From: Mobula birostris | Lineage: Eukaryota | Length of the DNA: 64,000 bases | Assembly: GCF_030028105.1 (NCBI RefSeq) | Contig: NC_092370.1 | Span: 71,474,098 to 71,538,097 of the forward strand | Reading direction: 5' to 3' | Shown here: in pieces, positions 13,526 through 27,284 of the stretch | Layout of the letters: every line of letters starts with the position of its first letter | Numbering within the stretch: the first letter of the stretch is position 1 | Notes under the pieces: generated by a model | Databases searched by the model: none | Seen by the model: only the letters and a program-made list of their open reading frames with translations | Told to the model about the DNA's origin: nothing | Position numbers and translations under genes: made by a program

Positions 13526-15559
13526 ATTTCTATTTTAACTTCACAAACAGATCCATTAGCAGAGAAAGAAAAAAAGATGCACAAATTAGGAGAAAATAAC
13601 TGAGTCTATAAAACAAAACATAATTTCTGATACACAATGAACATTATTTTACAGAGTACAAGGTTCATCTACAGTAAGTGAACAGAATGGTGGCATGAAT
13701 TTCAAAACTAACAGTATTGCTTACTGAAAGTGCATCCGTGGTTCACCTTTCAGATTACTTTTATTTAGCACATTTACATTGAAACATACAGTAAAATATG
13801 TTGTTTGCGTTAACAACGAACACAGCATTGGGGCAGCCTGCAAGTGTTGCCTTGCCACACATTCCGGCAACAACATAGCATGCCCACAATACTTTGCAGA
13901 ACAACACAGAACACAACAAGCTGAACAACAATAGTCAAACAAGGCCCATTGTGTCCTTCACACCCATGCACATACACAGTCCTCCAACCTCAGGACAGGA
14001 AGTCTTCAGCCTCCAGAAGACTCATGGATTCAGACACTGGGGTTCAACTTCCCCAGTGGAGTGGTGAAAGATTCAGGGCTCCATCGATCCAGCCTCAACG
14101 TTTGAACTTCCGACTGACCTTCAGCGTCGACCCCAGAACTTACTGATAATAACAAAAGAGGACTCTGGATGACGACCCCAAACACTTGGCCTTGAACTCC
14201 GTGTTCCTCAATGGCGGGATCTTAAATATTAGGACTGAAACTATGGACTTACCAATGACGAGACCCTGAACACAAGGCTTCGAATTCCAGTTTTACCAAC
14301 TCGCATATCTTGGGGGTCACCAGACCTCATGCCTCCTACCTACACAGAACTCCATTTCCAGAGCCTACCAACAACTTGCTGACCTGGGGTGGGGGGAGGG
14401 GGAAGAGATGGCCACCAGCCCTTGCTAGTCTGCCGGCCCGACATCCAACCATGGACGTTCTTCATCCTATGTTCACATCACTGGCCTTCAAGCACAGAGC
14501 GGAGGCCTAGACTCTGGCCTAACCTCTAATTCTCCCATATCCCAGTCCCCAGATGCTACACTGACCCCTAACTCCCCACTGTCCGCAAGATCATCCTCAA
14601 GAATTAAAAGGCAGCTGTAAAATAACTCAGTCCGAGAAATGACCTCGAAGAAAGTTCTTAGGAAATCTGCAAGTTTTAAATCACATCGCAGTACCATTGT
14701 TCATATGTAAATTTCAACTTCTGTGGAGGGTCCTGTTCCTTCTCAGAAGCTGGATAAAGAATGTAAAAATTGTTATTTGTGGAAATATAAGAGTACTATA
14801 TTTTGGTAGTACTGTATTTTGAATATGGTGTTTTGTATGCAAGTACAGAGGGGCTGAGTCAGGTTGATAATATGATGTTTGAAAGAATTTGTCTGACAGT
14901 CATGAAAAATTTAAATTTTTTTTAAACTTGGCCTCAATTCAAGGAAAAGTGGCAGATGTTTGGCTGACCCACATCACCCACTCACATTTAACATCATGTG
15001 TGTGTGTCTGTTGCTGGCAGTCTAACAGAACAACACCTCGCTGTAATAGGTAATAACTATTGTAAAGGATTAATTTATAGACATAGGTCAACGCACATTT
15101 CTTCAGTACTATGTGATCCAAGATCGATTTTATCTGAAGTTAATCAGGTTACTGATACTTCTGGATGAAAATGCAACCTTGAACTGGCCAGATCCAGGCA
15201 GGAACGATACAATCAAGTCTGATTTTACACATGTATGAACAAAATGGATGTCCATTCTGTCTTCAAATGTTCTTCATACAAAGTCTGCTGGACCCATATT
15301 CCGATGGGTTGACTATACTGTATGTGCAATCATTTTCTCTTGCTCTTTCACGACTGCAGTCTCATTGTTTAATGTACTGTACCTCAGAGCATCATTACTG
15401 TGACCCCTGCCTCACTGATTATCCTGCACCTTGCATAAGCAAGAGGATATGCATGACACAAGCTCTCTATCAGGGTATTGGACCACAGTGGAGATGATAA
15501 ACAGTTATGTCGCCCCACCACCACCACCAAACAACTACACTCTCCCTCACCTCCAAAGT

Positions 15560-15709
15560 AATACACACAAAATGCTGGAGAAACTCAGCAGATCAGGCAG
15601 CATCTCTGGAGAGGAACAAGGAGCCGATGTTTCAGACCCAGACCCATCGTAAGTTCTTCCAGCAATTTGTGTGTGTTCCTCAGGATTTCCAGCATCTGCA
15701 GGACCTGTG
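15560..15709. mobile_element. Penelope-derived fold-back fragment next to the LTR element
   Basis: acacacaaaatgctggag ... ttccagcaatttgtgtgtg in inverted arrangement. Confidence 0.65.
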
Positions 15710-15714
15710 TTTAT

Positions 15715-15914
15715 TGTGGTGATATCATGCACAATGATGTGCCAGTTCATGATTAGACAGAGCACTGAGTATGTGCAGGATTGTCAGAATGTTCCAGCAC
15801 GTACCTGGGTTAAGACGTGTTTGTTTATTACTGTAAATAAAAGTTCTCTAATTCTTCCAGAATATGATTCTTTACTGTTAACTCACAGTATGCTTAAACA
15901 GAAGTAACATAACA
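15715..15914 (+). repeat. 5' LTR (200 bp)
   Basis: TGTGGTGATATC...CATAACA, contains AATAAA. About 90% identical to 17818-18015 by manual alignment. Confidence 0.95.
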
Positions 15915-15929
15915 TGCTGTCAGAAGTAG
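15915..15929 (+). other. Primer binding site, tRNA-Leu type
   Basis: TGCTGTCAGAAGTAG directly after the 5' LTR resembles TGGTGTCAGAAGTGG, the complement of the tRNA-Leu 3' end. Confidence 0.8.
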
Positions 15930-16010
15930 TTCTGGAAGAATAATACGGGAGAATCAAGAGTCAAAGATAATAGAAAAAAAAAGAAAAAAGTTTGAACTGT
16001 AAATGGTAAA

Positions 16011-16827
16011 ATGGAAGGATTACAACCCCCACCAAAACTTCAGCTGACTGGCAATGTAGCTGAGAATTGGAGGCTATTCAAGCAACAGTTTGAACTGTAC
16101 TTATCAGTGATTGATTATGAATAAAAATCGGAAAAACAAAGCTGCGCTTTTGCTCCATGTAATCCGGAATGACGCAGTAGAGGTATATAATAATTCTGTC
16201 TCTGAAGATGGAGATAATTTCAATTTAAAGTCGATAATGGACAGATTTGAAGTATTTTGTATACCTAAGCTTAATTTGACGTATGAGCGATATAAATTCT
16301 TCACATGTGCGAGAGAGCCGCTGAAACAATTGATCGGTAAGTTACCGAGTTATGAAAGCGGAGTAGAACACATGAGTTTGGATTGCTCACGGACTCTCTC
16401 ATTAAAGATAGACTTGTTTATGGCATTTGAGATAATGCTCTGAGAGAAAGGCTGTTGAGAGAGCAAGATTTAAATTTTGAAAAAGCTTTGGCACTTTGCA
16501 AAGCTTCTGAGACCGTGACGTTGCAGGCTGAAGAGCTTTTTGTCGAAAACTGCAATGTAAACACTGTAAAAAAAAAAGCGCGAATACATCAAGAAATATA
16601 ATAATACTTCGACAAAACCGACAGAGAGCAAGAAGGCAGTGGAAAGAAAAAAGTCTTTTGATCGCTGTGCGCAGGAACATCGTCCAAATCAGTGTCCTGC
16701 ATATGGCAAAATTTCCAATGGCTGCGGTAAGATTAATCGTTTTTCATGCTGTTGTAAAAGTAGAAAGAAGGAAAATAAAATGAAACAAGTAAATGCTGTG
16801 CTTGAAGATGAACATGAGGAATTTTAA
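16011..16827 (+). pseudogene. Disrupted gag
   Basis: MEGLQPPPKLQLTGNVAENWRLFKQQFELYL, LTYERYKFF, DNALRERLLRE and a degenerate double zinc knuckle (CAQEHRPNQCPAYGKISNGCGKINRF), broken by stops and frameshifts. Confidence 0.85.
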
Positions 16828-16833
16828 ATAGAT

Positions 16834-17532
16834 GTGCTTTGTGAAAATAAACAAAGTACGAATGACTGGACTATTCCATTGCAAGTGAATCAAAACAATA
16901 ATCTGTTTAAACTTGATACTGGAGCGCAAGTAAATGTTCTTGCAGAATCTGAGTTTAATGCTTTAAAGACTAGACCAAGGTTACATCAGACAAATATAAA
17001 AGTGACTGGGTATTCAGGTGCAGACATTCCAGTTAAAGGAACATGCGTAGCAAAGGTATCATACAAAAATATTGTGCATACGCTTTCATTTGTGGTCGTG
17101 CCAAAAAATGTACAGTCAATTCTGGATTTACCTTCCTGTGAAAGACTTAATTTGGTGAACACAGAGCTGAAGCGCCAGAATGTTGCATTACAGTCGGCAG
17201 AAGGTGATGTCGCTCGACTGCAGGTCCAGCTCATGGAGGCAAATGCTGACATGGAGAATATAAAAGCAGTAGCTGCAGTGTCTGAGACGACCAAACAGGA
17301 GGCAACTGATGATGTGAAAAAGCAATGGCAGGAGGAGATTGCTTCAATGCAAGCGATGATGAAAGAGACACTGAGAGAATATGAGATTCAGTTTCATCAC
17401 CATCTAGAGCAAGAACGCTCACAGTGGGCACAGTATAAGGAAGAAGTGAAATCACAAGTGAAAGAATTGAGAAGTATTATTGAAATGGTGAAGTCTCAGC
17501 ATAAAGAAAGAGATTACACAGTTAATGAATGA
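16834..17532 (+). CDS. Chimeric 232-aa ORF: retroviral-type aspartic protease fused to RABEP1-like and SH3KBP1-like coiled coils
   Basis: FKLDTGAQVNVL active site and ILDLPSCERLNLV protease end, then ELKRQNV...MENIKAVAAVSETTKQEA...LEQERSQWAQYKE, then EVKSQVKELRSIIEMVKSQHK. The frame is open, but expression is unknown. Confidence 0.7.
   Translation: MLCENKQSTNDWTIPLQVNQNNNLFKLDTGAQVNVLAESEFNALKTRPRLHQTNIKVTGYSGADIPVKGTCVAKVSYKNIVHTLSFVVVPKNVQSILDLPSCERLNLVNTELKRQNVALQSAEGDVARLQVQLMEANADMENIKAVAAVSETTKQEATDDVKKQWQEEIASMQAMMKETLREYEIQFHHHLEQERSQWAQYKEEVKSQVKELRSIIEMVKSQHKERDYTVNE
17164..17442 (+). pseudogene. RABEP1: Captured RABEP1 (Rabaptin-5)-like fragment, part 1
   Basis: Aligns without gaps to recalled human RABEP1 DLKRQNAVLQAAQDDLGHLRTQLWEAQAEMENIKAIATVSENTKQEAIDEVKRQWREEVASLQAVMKETVRDYEHQFHLRLEQERTQWAQYRE. 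Confidence 0.88.
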
Positions 17533-17570
17533 ATTAGATGAAGAAGATTCATATTTCATTACAAATGGAA
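17440..17570 (+). pseudogene. SH3KBP1: Captured SH3KBP1 (CIN85)-like C-terminal coiled-coil fragment
   Basis: EEVKSQVKELRSIIEMVKSQHK/KEITQLMNELDEE/IHISLQME (two frameshifts) versus recalled CIN85 [45 protein letters not shown]. Confidence 0.8.
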
Positions 17571-17621
17571 ATGGAACGTGGATTGACTGATCTAAGGAGA
17601 CATTTGTCTGAAGGACAAGAA
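17571..17621 (+). pseudogene. RABEP1: Captured RABEP1-like fragment, part 2
   Basis: MERGLTDLRRHLSEGQE versus recalled RABEP1 AEREIADLRRRLSEGQE, the direct continuation of part 1. Confidence 0.8.
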
Positions 17622-17730
17622 GACAAAGTGAGGATACAAGATAAAAGGAATATGTGAACACAGACCAGATCATACATGGTCCAAACAGAGGAGGGAGTGG
17701 TGTTAAGAAAGAACCGCCAAGGCTTTAAGA
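17619..17730 (+). pseudogene. Integrase C-terminal (GPY/F-like) remnant
   Basis: DKVRIQD and (T)RSYMVQTEEGVVLRKNRQ resemble the Mag-type GDxVRI...PRSYxV...RRNR motif. Confidence 0.7.
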
Positions 17731-17804
17731 AAGAGCCAACTTCAGAGTTTCAGTTATCTGATATAGATGTGTTTTGATTAACGTTGTTAATTGTTTTTCT
17801 TTTT

Positions 17805-17817
17805 AAGAAAAGGAAGA
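17805..17817 (+). other. Polypurine tract
   Basis: AAGAAAAGGAAGA immediately 5' of the 3' LTR. Confidence 0.85.
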
Positions 17818-18015
17818 TGTGGTGATATCATATGCAATAATGTGCCAGTACGATTGGACAGAGCACTGAGCATGCGCGGGATTGCCAGAATGTTCCAGCA
17901 GGTGGCTGCGTTAAGACGTGTTTGTTTATTACTGTAAATAAAAGTTCTCTAATTATTCCAGAATATGATTCTTTACTGTTAACCCACGGTACGTTTAAAC
18001 AGAAGTAACATAACA
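17818..18015 (+). repeat. 3' LTR (198 bp)
   Basis: Direct repeat of 15715-15914, preceded by the PPT and followed by the TSD. Confidence 0.95.
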
Positions 18016-18559
18016 TTTATGATTTGTTGTCCCTCTCTTCTATAGCAACCTTTAACGCAACTGGTCTGTGGCTACTTTGGAGATGGGTCCTTTAAGGTTT
18101 TACAGCCTTCCATGTACAAAACATGCTAGTCTGCAGCTTCCAGATATTCCCGTGTATCCCAAGGCTTTTGCTCCTTTCCAAATGGGCACAACAGCATCAC
18201 CTCAATGCCCTTACAATGAGTTTTGTCACTGCTCCGGGGGGGGAGGGGTGCAATGAATGCTAGCACCAGGCTATGACTTCTTATCTACTCTTAATGGTTA
18301 CAACCGAAAATCGAGGTATAGCTCCCTTCATTTTCTTTGTCTGTATGTCATCATTCCTGATCTCCCATCTTTGCACTAGCACAAACAATGAAAAAACACA
18401 AAGGGTTGGAATGAAAATGGAAAACAAAATGATATTCCAAAACAGAAACACGAGATATCAACCATCTGTTTGTTAAAATATTAAATTACAGGTATTGTTG
18501 TTTGGCCTCTTGTGCATTTTCACGCACAACAGTACCTAGAATTTACAGAGAATGTTGCG

Positions 18560-25706: not shown

Positions 25707-27284
25707 CATTGGACAACACAGATTTTGCTTCCTGAATACTTCTGAGTGTACCTTATGAGTTTTGGGCTGCTGATCATTAAAATTGCCATTTTTTTACATC
25801 ATCTTTATTTCAATTCATAATTCAAGTCAGAATAATTGACGCCAAGATTAAAGGCAGCATTTTTGTTGGTCCACAAATCAAACAGGTCATCAATGTCAGG
25901 CAACTTGAAGAACTTCTAGTGGATCCGGAGAAAATCACATGTTAGGCATTCAAGAATGTTGTTGAAAATTTTCTCGGCATTTGCAGAGCATCAAACTATG
26001 TGCAGGTAGTTGACAACATGTTTCAAGCATACAAAACCACAAAGTGCAGCATGTCGCTAAAGATTCATTTTCTACATTCCCATTTAGAATTCTTCCCTGC
26101 AAATCTTGACGCTGTCAGTGATGAGCATGGTGAAAGGTTTCACCAGAACATTGGGGTCATGGAGAAACAATAACAGGACAACTGGAATCCATCAATACTG
26201 GCTGATTATTGTTGGACACTTCAGTGAGAAGCCTCAGAGTACAAATGAAAATCATCAACAAAAAAAATGTGAAGTTATCCACTTTGGTGGCAAAAATAGG
26301 AAAACAGATTATTATCTGAATGGTGGCCGATTAGGAAAAGGGGAGGTGCAACGTGACCTGGGTGTCATTATACACCAGTCATTGAAAGTGGGCATGCAGG
26401 TACAGCAGGCGGTGAAAAAGGCGAATGGTATGCTGGCATTTATAGCGAGAGGATTTGAGTACAGGAGCAAGGAGGTGCTACTGCAGTTGTACAAGGCCTT
26501 GGTGAGACCACACCTGGAGTATTGTGTGCAGTTTTGGTCCCCTAATCTGAGGAAAGACATCCTTGCCATAGAGGGAGTACAGAGAAGGTTCACCAGATTG
26601 ATTCCTGGGATGGCAAGACTTTCATATGAAGAAAGAATGGATGAACTGGGCTTGTACTCGTTGGAATTTAGAAGATTGAGGGGGGATCTGATTGAAACGT
26701 ATGAGATCCTAAAGGGATTGGACAGGCTAGATGCAGGAAGATTGTTCCCGATGTTGGGGAAGTCCAGAACGAGGGATCACAGTTTGAGGATAGAGGGGAA
26801 GCCCTTTAGGGCCGAGATTAGGAAAAACTTCTTCACACAGAGAGTGGTGAATCTGTGGAATTCTCTGCCACAGGAAACAGTTGAGGCCAGTTCATTGGCT
26901 ATTTTTAAGAGGGAGTTAGATATGGCCCTTGTGGCTACGGGGGTCAGGGGGTATGGAGGGAAGGCTGGGGCGGTGTTCTGAGTTGGATGATCAGCCATGA
27001 TCATAATAAATGGCGGTGCAGGCTCGAAGGGCCGAATGGCCTACTCCTGCACCTATTTTCTATGTTTCTATGTTTCTATAAAACATTTTTAGCTTAATTG
27101 ACCTATTGTAAAGCATCAACACCATTATGCAATTAAACACATGATACTCAATTGAAGTTAATTTCTTGTTTCTACATGATACAGGTAGTCTAAAATTATA
27201 TTTGTGCTCTGCTTCAAGTGGTCTATCATAAACAAGAGTAATTTCTGAGGAAGCAACGCTTTTGACAAAATTTGTTGTCCAGTG
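25707..27284 (+). mobile_element. Internally deleted Chapaev3-like (CMC) DNA transposon interrupted by a CR1
   Basis: TIRs CATTGGACAACACAGATTTTG and CAAAATTTGTTGTCCAGTG with a 3-bp TSD TAA on both sides. Transposase C-terminal remnant MSLKIHFLHSHLEFFPANLDAVSDEHGERFHQNI at ~26051-26152. Confidence 0.75.
26265..27078 (+). mobile_element. Young 5'-truncated CR1-clade LINE
   Basis: Open ORF2 C-terminus (KCEVIHFG...LYKALVRPHLEYCVQFWSP...FFTQRVVNLWNSLP), 3'UTR and (TTCTATGT)n tail. Confidence 0.92.

Follow-up and report, generated by a model that had tools for sequence, protein, structure and literature searches.

Fragments of RABEP1, SH3KBP1 and SLU7 in a Ty3/Gypsy element family of Mobula birostris, with a nested two-gene form probably assembled by crossovers between sister elements

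A 2.3-kb non-autonomous Ty3/Gypsy element, recognised by its long terminal repeats (LTRs), target-site duplication and domains, occupies positions 15715-18015 of the stretch of Mobula birostris DNA analysed here (the window, 64,000 nucleotides, G000:C1:71474098-71538097) and carries a piece of SH3KBP1 nested within a piece of RABEP1. The 4.0-Gb genome (G000) was searched for sister elements, which are assigned to five classes: R (RABEP1 only), S (SH3KBP1 only), X (RABEP1-SH3KBP1-integrase tail), Y (as X, plus SLU7) and N (the nested form, to which the window copy belongs). Two crossovers between sister elements packaged together, and not a second capture from mRNA, probably gave rise to the nested form (rough probability 0.7). 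The window copy itself is dead, its frames being broken.

The features of the element are summarized in Table 1. Host sequence takes the place of reverse transcriptase (RT), RNase H and the core of integrase, which are absent. The LTR of the window copy is about 90% identical to the LTRs of the pol-bearing parents L153-L155; regarding L153, the LTR and gag-protease region are likewise about 90% like those of the window element, and its frames match RVT_1, RT_RNaseH, Integrase_H2C2 and rve in that order, which is the Gypsy order. Parents with RT, RNase H and integrase were found for both backbones. The protein matches for the family bore only 'K02A2.6-like' names, a Pfam search of the sister L019 gave no gag match, and the clade within Gypsy may be Mag-like. 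A 24-nt deletion at the end of the protease and linker is confined to the window copy (n=18 aligned), and a 27-nt deletion in the integrase tail is common to the nested class. A short dispersed repeat (15552-15645; families D2, D8 and D10) adjoins the element, and the remainder of the window is repeat-rich; an open reading frame at 26088-26981 (297 aa) presumably represents the tail of a LINE RT, and a Pfam search with this frame gave no match.

Table 1. Positions of the features of the element in the window, and of the SLU7 piece in class Y
Feature	Position	Strand	Remarks
5' target-site duplication TTTAT	15710..15714		identical 5-mer at 18016-18020
5' LTR, TG...CA, 200 bp	15715..15914	+	89.6% identity to 3' LTR
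Primer-binding-site-like sequence, abutting LTR	15915..15927	+	assigned by position only
gag, broken in window copy	16011..16875	+	collinear with gag of sisters and parents; five frame segments
Aspartic protease and linker	16876..17162	+	Pfam gag-asp_proteas, E 3e-6
Captured RABEP1 5' piece, two exons, intronless join 17365/17366	17163..17443	+	95% to host exons (G000:C29:53631356-53631153 and 53622116-53621956)
Captured SH3KBP1 C-terminal coiled-coil piece, three exons	17440..17576	+	host exons; PDB and protein matches
Left switch point, microhomology GAAG	17440..17443	+	host exon sequences; 12-mer scan
Right switch point, microhomology AGTGGAA	17570..17576	+	G>A at 17571 in window copy; host exons; alignment
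Captured RABEP1 3' piece	17570..17623	+	ends at integrase junction also used by RABEP1-only elements
Integrase C-terminal tail up to stop codon	17624..17777	+	alignment with parents and sisters
Polypurine tract	17805..17817	+	immediately 5' of 3' LTR
3' LTR	17818..18015	+	pairs with 5' LTR
3' target-site duplication TTTAT	18016..18020		equals 5' copy
SLU7 piece in class Y	L199:1500-1700 (G000:C21:6887439-6887636)		host gene G000:C8:121969034-121976047

An earlier sequence-only reading of this DNA had noted that similarity to RABEP1 ends at QYKE and is picked up again with the residues that follow, which is borne out by a Pfam Rabaptin match for 17161-17445 (E 1.4e-40) and by matches of host RABEP1 exon 4 to 17364-17451 and 17572-17626. 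The intervening 137 nt read in three frames exactly as had been described (the translations are identical), because, compared with its sisters, the window copy has gained one base near 17506 and lost five bases after 17540; in the sisters L004, L009 and L016 reading is open across both junctions. The proposed identity of the insert as the SH3KBP1 coiled coil agrees with the PDB search, in which the open insert frame of a sister matched the CIN85 structures 5abs and 2n64 at E 1e-13 and the runner-up reached only E 0.29. SH3KBP1 had been expected to score above CD2AP; the identity to ray SH3KBP1 was 98%, and none of the best 120 of 215 matches was named CD2AP. The insert DNA maps to the three final coding exons of host SH3KBP1 (in L060, G000:C7:81005001-81015000), as had been suspected: 17440-17504 is the end of one exon, 17505-17564 represents a complete exon of 64 nt, and 17565-17576 covers 12 nt of the final exon, the introns of 1095 and 2011 bp being missing. 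One intron is absent from the RABEP1 cargo, where two exons are joined; both pieces are thus intronless and therefore went through spliced RNA. The host exons of both genes are mostly 90-100% identical to Mobula proteins, and the genes are indeed unlinked (SH3KBP1 on contig C7, RABEP1 on contig C29).

The suggestion that the 130 bp are a native exon of RABEP1 or RABEP2, a generic coiled-coil match or an assembly artefact is refuted, and nothing was found in its favour. Host RABEP1 exon 4 is contiguous over the insert site, the insert is 89-94% identical to SH3KBP1 exons, 66 of the 67 exact matches to the hybrid junction lie at element-like places across the genome (27 of them matched by place only), and an annotated protein of Hemitrygon akajei has the same nested form (protein record P0014, 86% to L004).

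At the left switch point RABEP1 and SH3KBP1 are alike at 10 of 12 bases from GAAG onward. The nested form has lost one RABEP1 base (C) and gained 129 nt net, the frame being kept. Two repeats previously pointed out at the junctions proved to have other origins: GAA GAA on the left is native SH3KBP1 sequence, and ATGGAA ATGGAA on the right was created by the G>A change, found in the window copy and in one of 17 aligned sisters (L002). Junction duplications as a target-site signature were accordingly rejected, the real signals being the microhomologies GAAG and AGTGGAA. Microsimilarity is present both at the switch points and at the element-host junctions, with no poly(A) and no duplication around the cargo. 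The purine content is 65% in the RABEP1 cargo and 69% in the SH3KBP1 insert, and cargo this rich in purines would offer microhomology to the A-rich pol.

The class structure was scored against host exons. The nested structure was present in 20/20 loci of the nested set; class S carried SH3KBP1 alone in 20/20 loci, with one of two 5' junctions and one 3' junction with the integrase tail; class R carried RABEP1 contiguous over the insert site in 21/21 loci. Sisters with RABEP1 and no insert, for which a search had been suggested in order to rank the captures, thus exist, and the uninterrupted RABEP1 cargo came first. Class R as a deletion product of the nested form was rejected, since all 21 loci keep the host C that N lost. 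N and R have a common RABEP1 start, a common RABEP1/integrase junction and six common differences from host RABEP1, which may in part be later changes of the host gene. N, X and Y have a single left junction in common. The SH3KBP1/integrase junction of X is exactly that of class S, and class Y has the S-type junction followed by 18 integrase bases before its third cargo.

Exact 21-base junction sequences matched the genome 67 times (hybrid), 22 times (contiguous RABEP1, one of them the host gene) and 119 times (SH3KBP1, one host), and the reversed control sequences 0 times each. The exact motif is retained in 17/30, 9/21 and 14/23 sampled copies (hybrid, RABEP1 and SH3KBP1, respectively), so true copy numbers exceed these counts. 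The 40 hybrid-junction matches outside the earlier locus listings were fetched and classified as 10 N, 5 X (four distinct), 21 Y, 3 truncated and 1 chance match; by inspection L164 was assigned to N (not Y) and L186 to Y. Five-base target duplications mark separate insertions of copies. The tree of 30 nested copies (a set that excludes eight repeated loci and the truncated L099) is star-like, and the history of the class is one of a burst, then decay. Among 60 loci picked by backbone alone (L106 re-oriented; not a census), 36 run into RT, 19 are RABEP1-SH3KBP1 hybrids, 3 are SH3-only and 2 RABEP1-only. A protein search for further ray cargoes gave none other among 40 matches (again not a census).

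Several copies show local rearrangements. Thirteen of the RABEP1-only junction matches cluster on contig C17 at 45.9-87.1 Mb (L050, L081); the pair compared there is 99.5% alike including its flanks, with some 550 bases inserted in its cargo, and is therefore attributed to segmental duplication, not transposition. In L036 the SH3KBP1 piece is duplicated internally in inverted orientation (1333-1446). L013 contains an extra partial hybrid copy just beyond its 3' LTR (2602-2894), and L216, at the same place as L163, a piece of about 600 bases resembling parental pol within the RABEP1 cargo (426-1047).

Class Y holds about 190 bases of a third gene, SLU7, in frame in the integrase tail behind RABEP1 and SH3KBP1. 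The identification is based on a PDB match (E 2.8e-4) and on 88-96% identity to three exons of a Slu7-domain gene on contig C8, with two introns absent; searches of Pfam, Atlas and a representative library with this cargo gave nothing useful. A search with the SLU7 piece yielded 93 candidates, and in 28 of the 30 fetched RABEP1 and SH3KBP1 lie upstream, the other two being cut short. Most class Y copies are without protease. In L165, L169, L171, L174 and L188 the 3' end behind SLU7 is doubled, a short tail with a polypurine tract and the first LTR bases being followed by a second, long tail. The endocytosis theme that had been seen in the two captures looks coincidental and is likely due to chance, because the third cargo is a splicing factor and the cargo changes are neutral in the sampled copies.

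Regarding the origin of the nested form, the earlier view of two successive captures into the same element is not supported in that form: pol was replaced twice in one Gypsy family, by separate captures (classes R and S), SH3KBP1 having been captured into a large sister family of its own whose 3' junction single-crossover hybrids carry. Because the single-crossover hybrids carry this class S junction, the SH3KBP1 piece likely came from a sister element. Class S is longer than the insert of N at both ends and so cannot derive from N. Pol-bearing parents would have co-packaged R and S RNAs; a template switch from R to S at GAAG would have made X, and a later switch from X back to R RNA at AGTGGAA would have made N. 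The second switch would have landed one base from the first, in a 12-base RABEP1 stretch that resembles both ends of the SH3KBP1 piece, and N may then have multiplied in trans on B-subfamily gag and LTR. The gag tree (62 sequences) is consistent with this order: a 0.998 clade excludes the X copies L181 and L194/L197, X forming the deepest hybrid branches, and the window copy and all but one N copy fall in a 0.986 clade with the B parents, the most derived clade. A derived T>A at SH3 position 370 occurs in 25/30 scored N, 0/12 scored Y and 0/20 scored S.

An alternative, considered unlikely, is a one-step second capture, in which RT on a RABEP1-only RNA jumped at AGTGGAA to SH3KBP1 mRNA (or S RNA), transcribed 141 bases of it and came back one base on, X and Y arising later by homologous exchange between N and S. 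The loss of just one RABEP1 base fits such an out-and-back switch, the insert and S are about equally near to the host gene (0.030 vs 0.025), and multi-switch captures from mRNAs are described in the accessible text of PMC5131818. Exchange of the N-to-X type does occur, since the X copy L193 carries the derived allele. Against a one-step capture stand the deepest branching of X among the hybrids and the ancestral base held by all scored Y, which most N have lost; an mRNA donor, moreover, requires the same SH3KBP1 segment to have been captured twice by a family already spreading it in more than 118 copies. Other observations weigh against the order proposed for the two crossovers: S has no family-specific change inside the 141 bases, so that sequence alone cannot separate an element donor from an mRNA donor; X could come from N and S by easy homologous exchange within the same 141 bases, L193 showing that such back-exchange occurs; and the S junction, with its 7-base microhomology, may have been used on two occasions.

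Two crossovers between sister elements nevertheless remain the preferred reading, at the probability given above. A further point against the proposed order is the position of two copies in the gag tree, X_L187 beside N and N_L160 beside Y, which shows a partial decoupling of gag from cargo. R and S are intermixed in the gag and protease trees, and the protease-deleting junction occurs with N, X and Y; modules have evidently been shuffled freely among the classes. LTR-LTR mismatch (with a false self-match of L014 filtered) was 0.079 in N (20/40), 0.091 in X (3/4), 0.079 in Y (12/30), 0.084 in S (9/23) and 0.074 in R (12/21); at about 8% in all classes, it gives no order as a clock.

The N:S counts of private non-CpG changes in the cargo were 66:26, 48:12, 112:44 and 48:9 (four sets; 21-30 copies per class) against an expected ratio of 2.6-3.0. 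By these counts cargo decay in the sampled copies is neutral; no purifying selection on the cargo was detected in them, the frame of the window copy is broken, and no evidence of a host function was found in the sampled copies. All 16 junctions or internal deletions common to at least two copies keep the gag-fused frame, a count that leaves out a 117-base deletion at the end of the reading frame and an 18-base deletion in two R copies, and on which the finding of R and S by protein searches has a bearing. Exact microhomologies between these frames are in frame in only 39-45% of cases (RABEP1 versus SH3KBP1 at 7 or more bases, 8/12), and the chance of 16/16 was estimated by hand at about 3e-6 to 2e-3, the junctions being taken as independent, which they are not fully. 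Of five junctions occurring in a single copy, three were in frame as judged by eye. Small frameshifts are common to L097 and L098 (which have different flanks), to L007 and L012, to four S copies and to three R copies; an open frame is therefore at most favoured, not required. Regarding four sequencing runs guessed to be RNA, pieces of contigs of run X16 cover both hybrid junctions, and in contigs of runs X15 and X18 the joint omits exactly 129 bases, which corresponds to contiguous RABEP1 (host or class R); neither observation demonstrates transcription.

These data bear on the proposal that the cargo was selected for protein function, the Gag-protease with its coiled coils oligomerising or recruiting endosomal machinery, or a copy serving the host. 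The frame conservation and the sense orientation of the host genes are in its favour, Val at both switch points would preserve the coiled-coil phase as judged by eye, and captured genes under selection exist in crocodilian endogenous retroviruses (ERVs) (PMC4299795, accessible text). The proposal is nonetheless improbable, given that the non-CpG cargo changes are neutral and stops are present, that SLU7 is not endocytic, that cargo lengths vary freely and that L097 and L098 have two frameshifts in common. The cargo is more likely a passenger, and what was favoured would likely have been an unbroken gag-fused frame, not the function of a host protein. A further and speculative possibility, held to be rather unlikely, is that the family is a self-propagating exon-shuffling pool, in which host exons are captured in sense and in frame and swapped between co-packaged sisters into two- and three-gene Gag fusions, only translatable fusions being amplified because the Gag-cargo protein, with its charged RABEP1, SH3KBP1 and SLU7 helices, would promote mobilisation of its own RNA in cis.

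In other rays, the nested form is present in the Hemitrygon akajei record mentioned above, the left junction in a record of Hypanus sabinus (P0133) and class S in a further record of Hemitrygon (P0005). From these protein records it is likely that the mosaic was assembled before the split of these rays. The three NCBI models ('RABEP1-like', 'uncharacterized') are element copies, not host genes.

Among known systems, the closest are LTR-mediated retrocopies such as Drosophila CG4799_CG11924_r and the mouse four-gene 'Super' retrocopy (Tan et al. 2016, PMC5131818). According to the accessible part of that paper, these resemble the ray element in having partial spliced mRNA in place of internal reading frames, microsimilarity at the switches, several parent genes per element and onward transposition as non-autonomous elements. 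In the ray family the cargo is likewise intronless partial mRNA with microsimilarity and secondary transposition with common junctions. The cases of Tan et al. are, in the same text, single loci or few insertion sites, whereas the ray family has five structural classes with tens to more than 100 copies each; it further differs in that one gene is nested in another and that single-cargo and single-crossover intermediates survive, which points to element-by-element recombination. Maize Bs1 also combines three host genes in one LTR element with switch points common to all copies, but is described in the accessible text of PMC5131818 and PMC13317346 with 1-5 copies, one piece out of frame, and as reportedly transcribed and translated; in the ray family all three pieces are in frame, yet the sampled copies decay neutrally. 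The nearest precedent for the in-frame pattern, by analogy, is mouse IAP 1-delta-1, a non-autonomous element that arose by deletion and outpaces its parent; its gag and pol are fused in frame, and the fusion reportedly acts in cis (PMC6466679, accessible text). IAP 1-delta-1 is an ERV without host cargo, and its cis effect is experimental, that of the ray family conjectural. Crocodilian ERVs that captured KIT-ligand and nectin3 are likewise vertebrate LTR elements amplifying host mRNA, but there the captures are of one gene at a time, in retroviral lineages, and the captured reading frames are under purifying selection (PMC4299795, as far as accessible), unlike the short fragments in Gypsy elements found here, for which no purifying selection was detected. 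BARE-2 and Veju, like the ray family, formed new subfamilies by switches between different co-packaged element RNAs, but these are plant elements, and what they swap is element sequence or unknown sequence rather than exons from identified host genes (PMC13317346, accessible text). In the literature search no paper on this ray Gypsy family was found; subscription titles for the most part, supplements and repeat databases lay outside its scope, and the supplementary lists of Tan et al. could hold closer cases.

The mechanism, LTR-mediated retroposition with capture of several genes, is thus already known, and the new part is the scale and the preservation of intermediates. The finding accounts for spurious 'RABEP1-like' models in the annotation of ray genomes. 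LTR chimeras of several genes are usually met as finished single loci, and their assembly route has therefore been guessed; here one vertebrate genome holds, in large numbers, the two parental classes with one gene each, the hybrid with one crossover, the nested form and a derivative with three genes. Element-element recombination as a builder of multi-gene retrocopies, and selection on non-autonomous elements for an open gag-fused frame, can now be tested from sequence alone.
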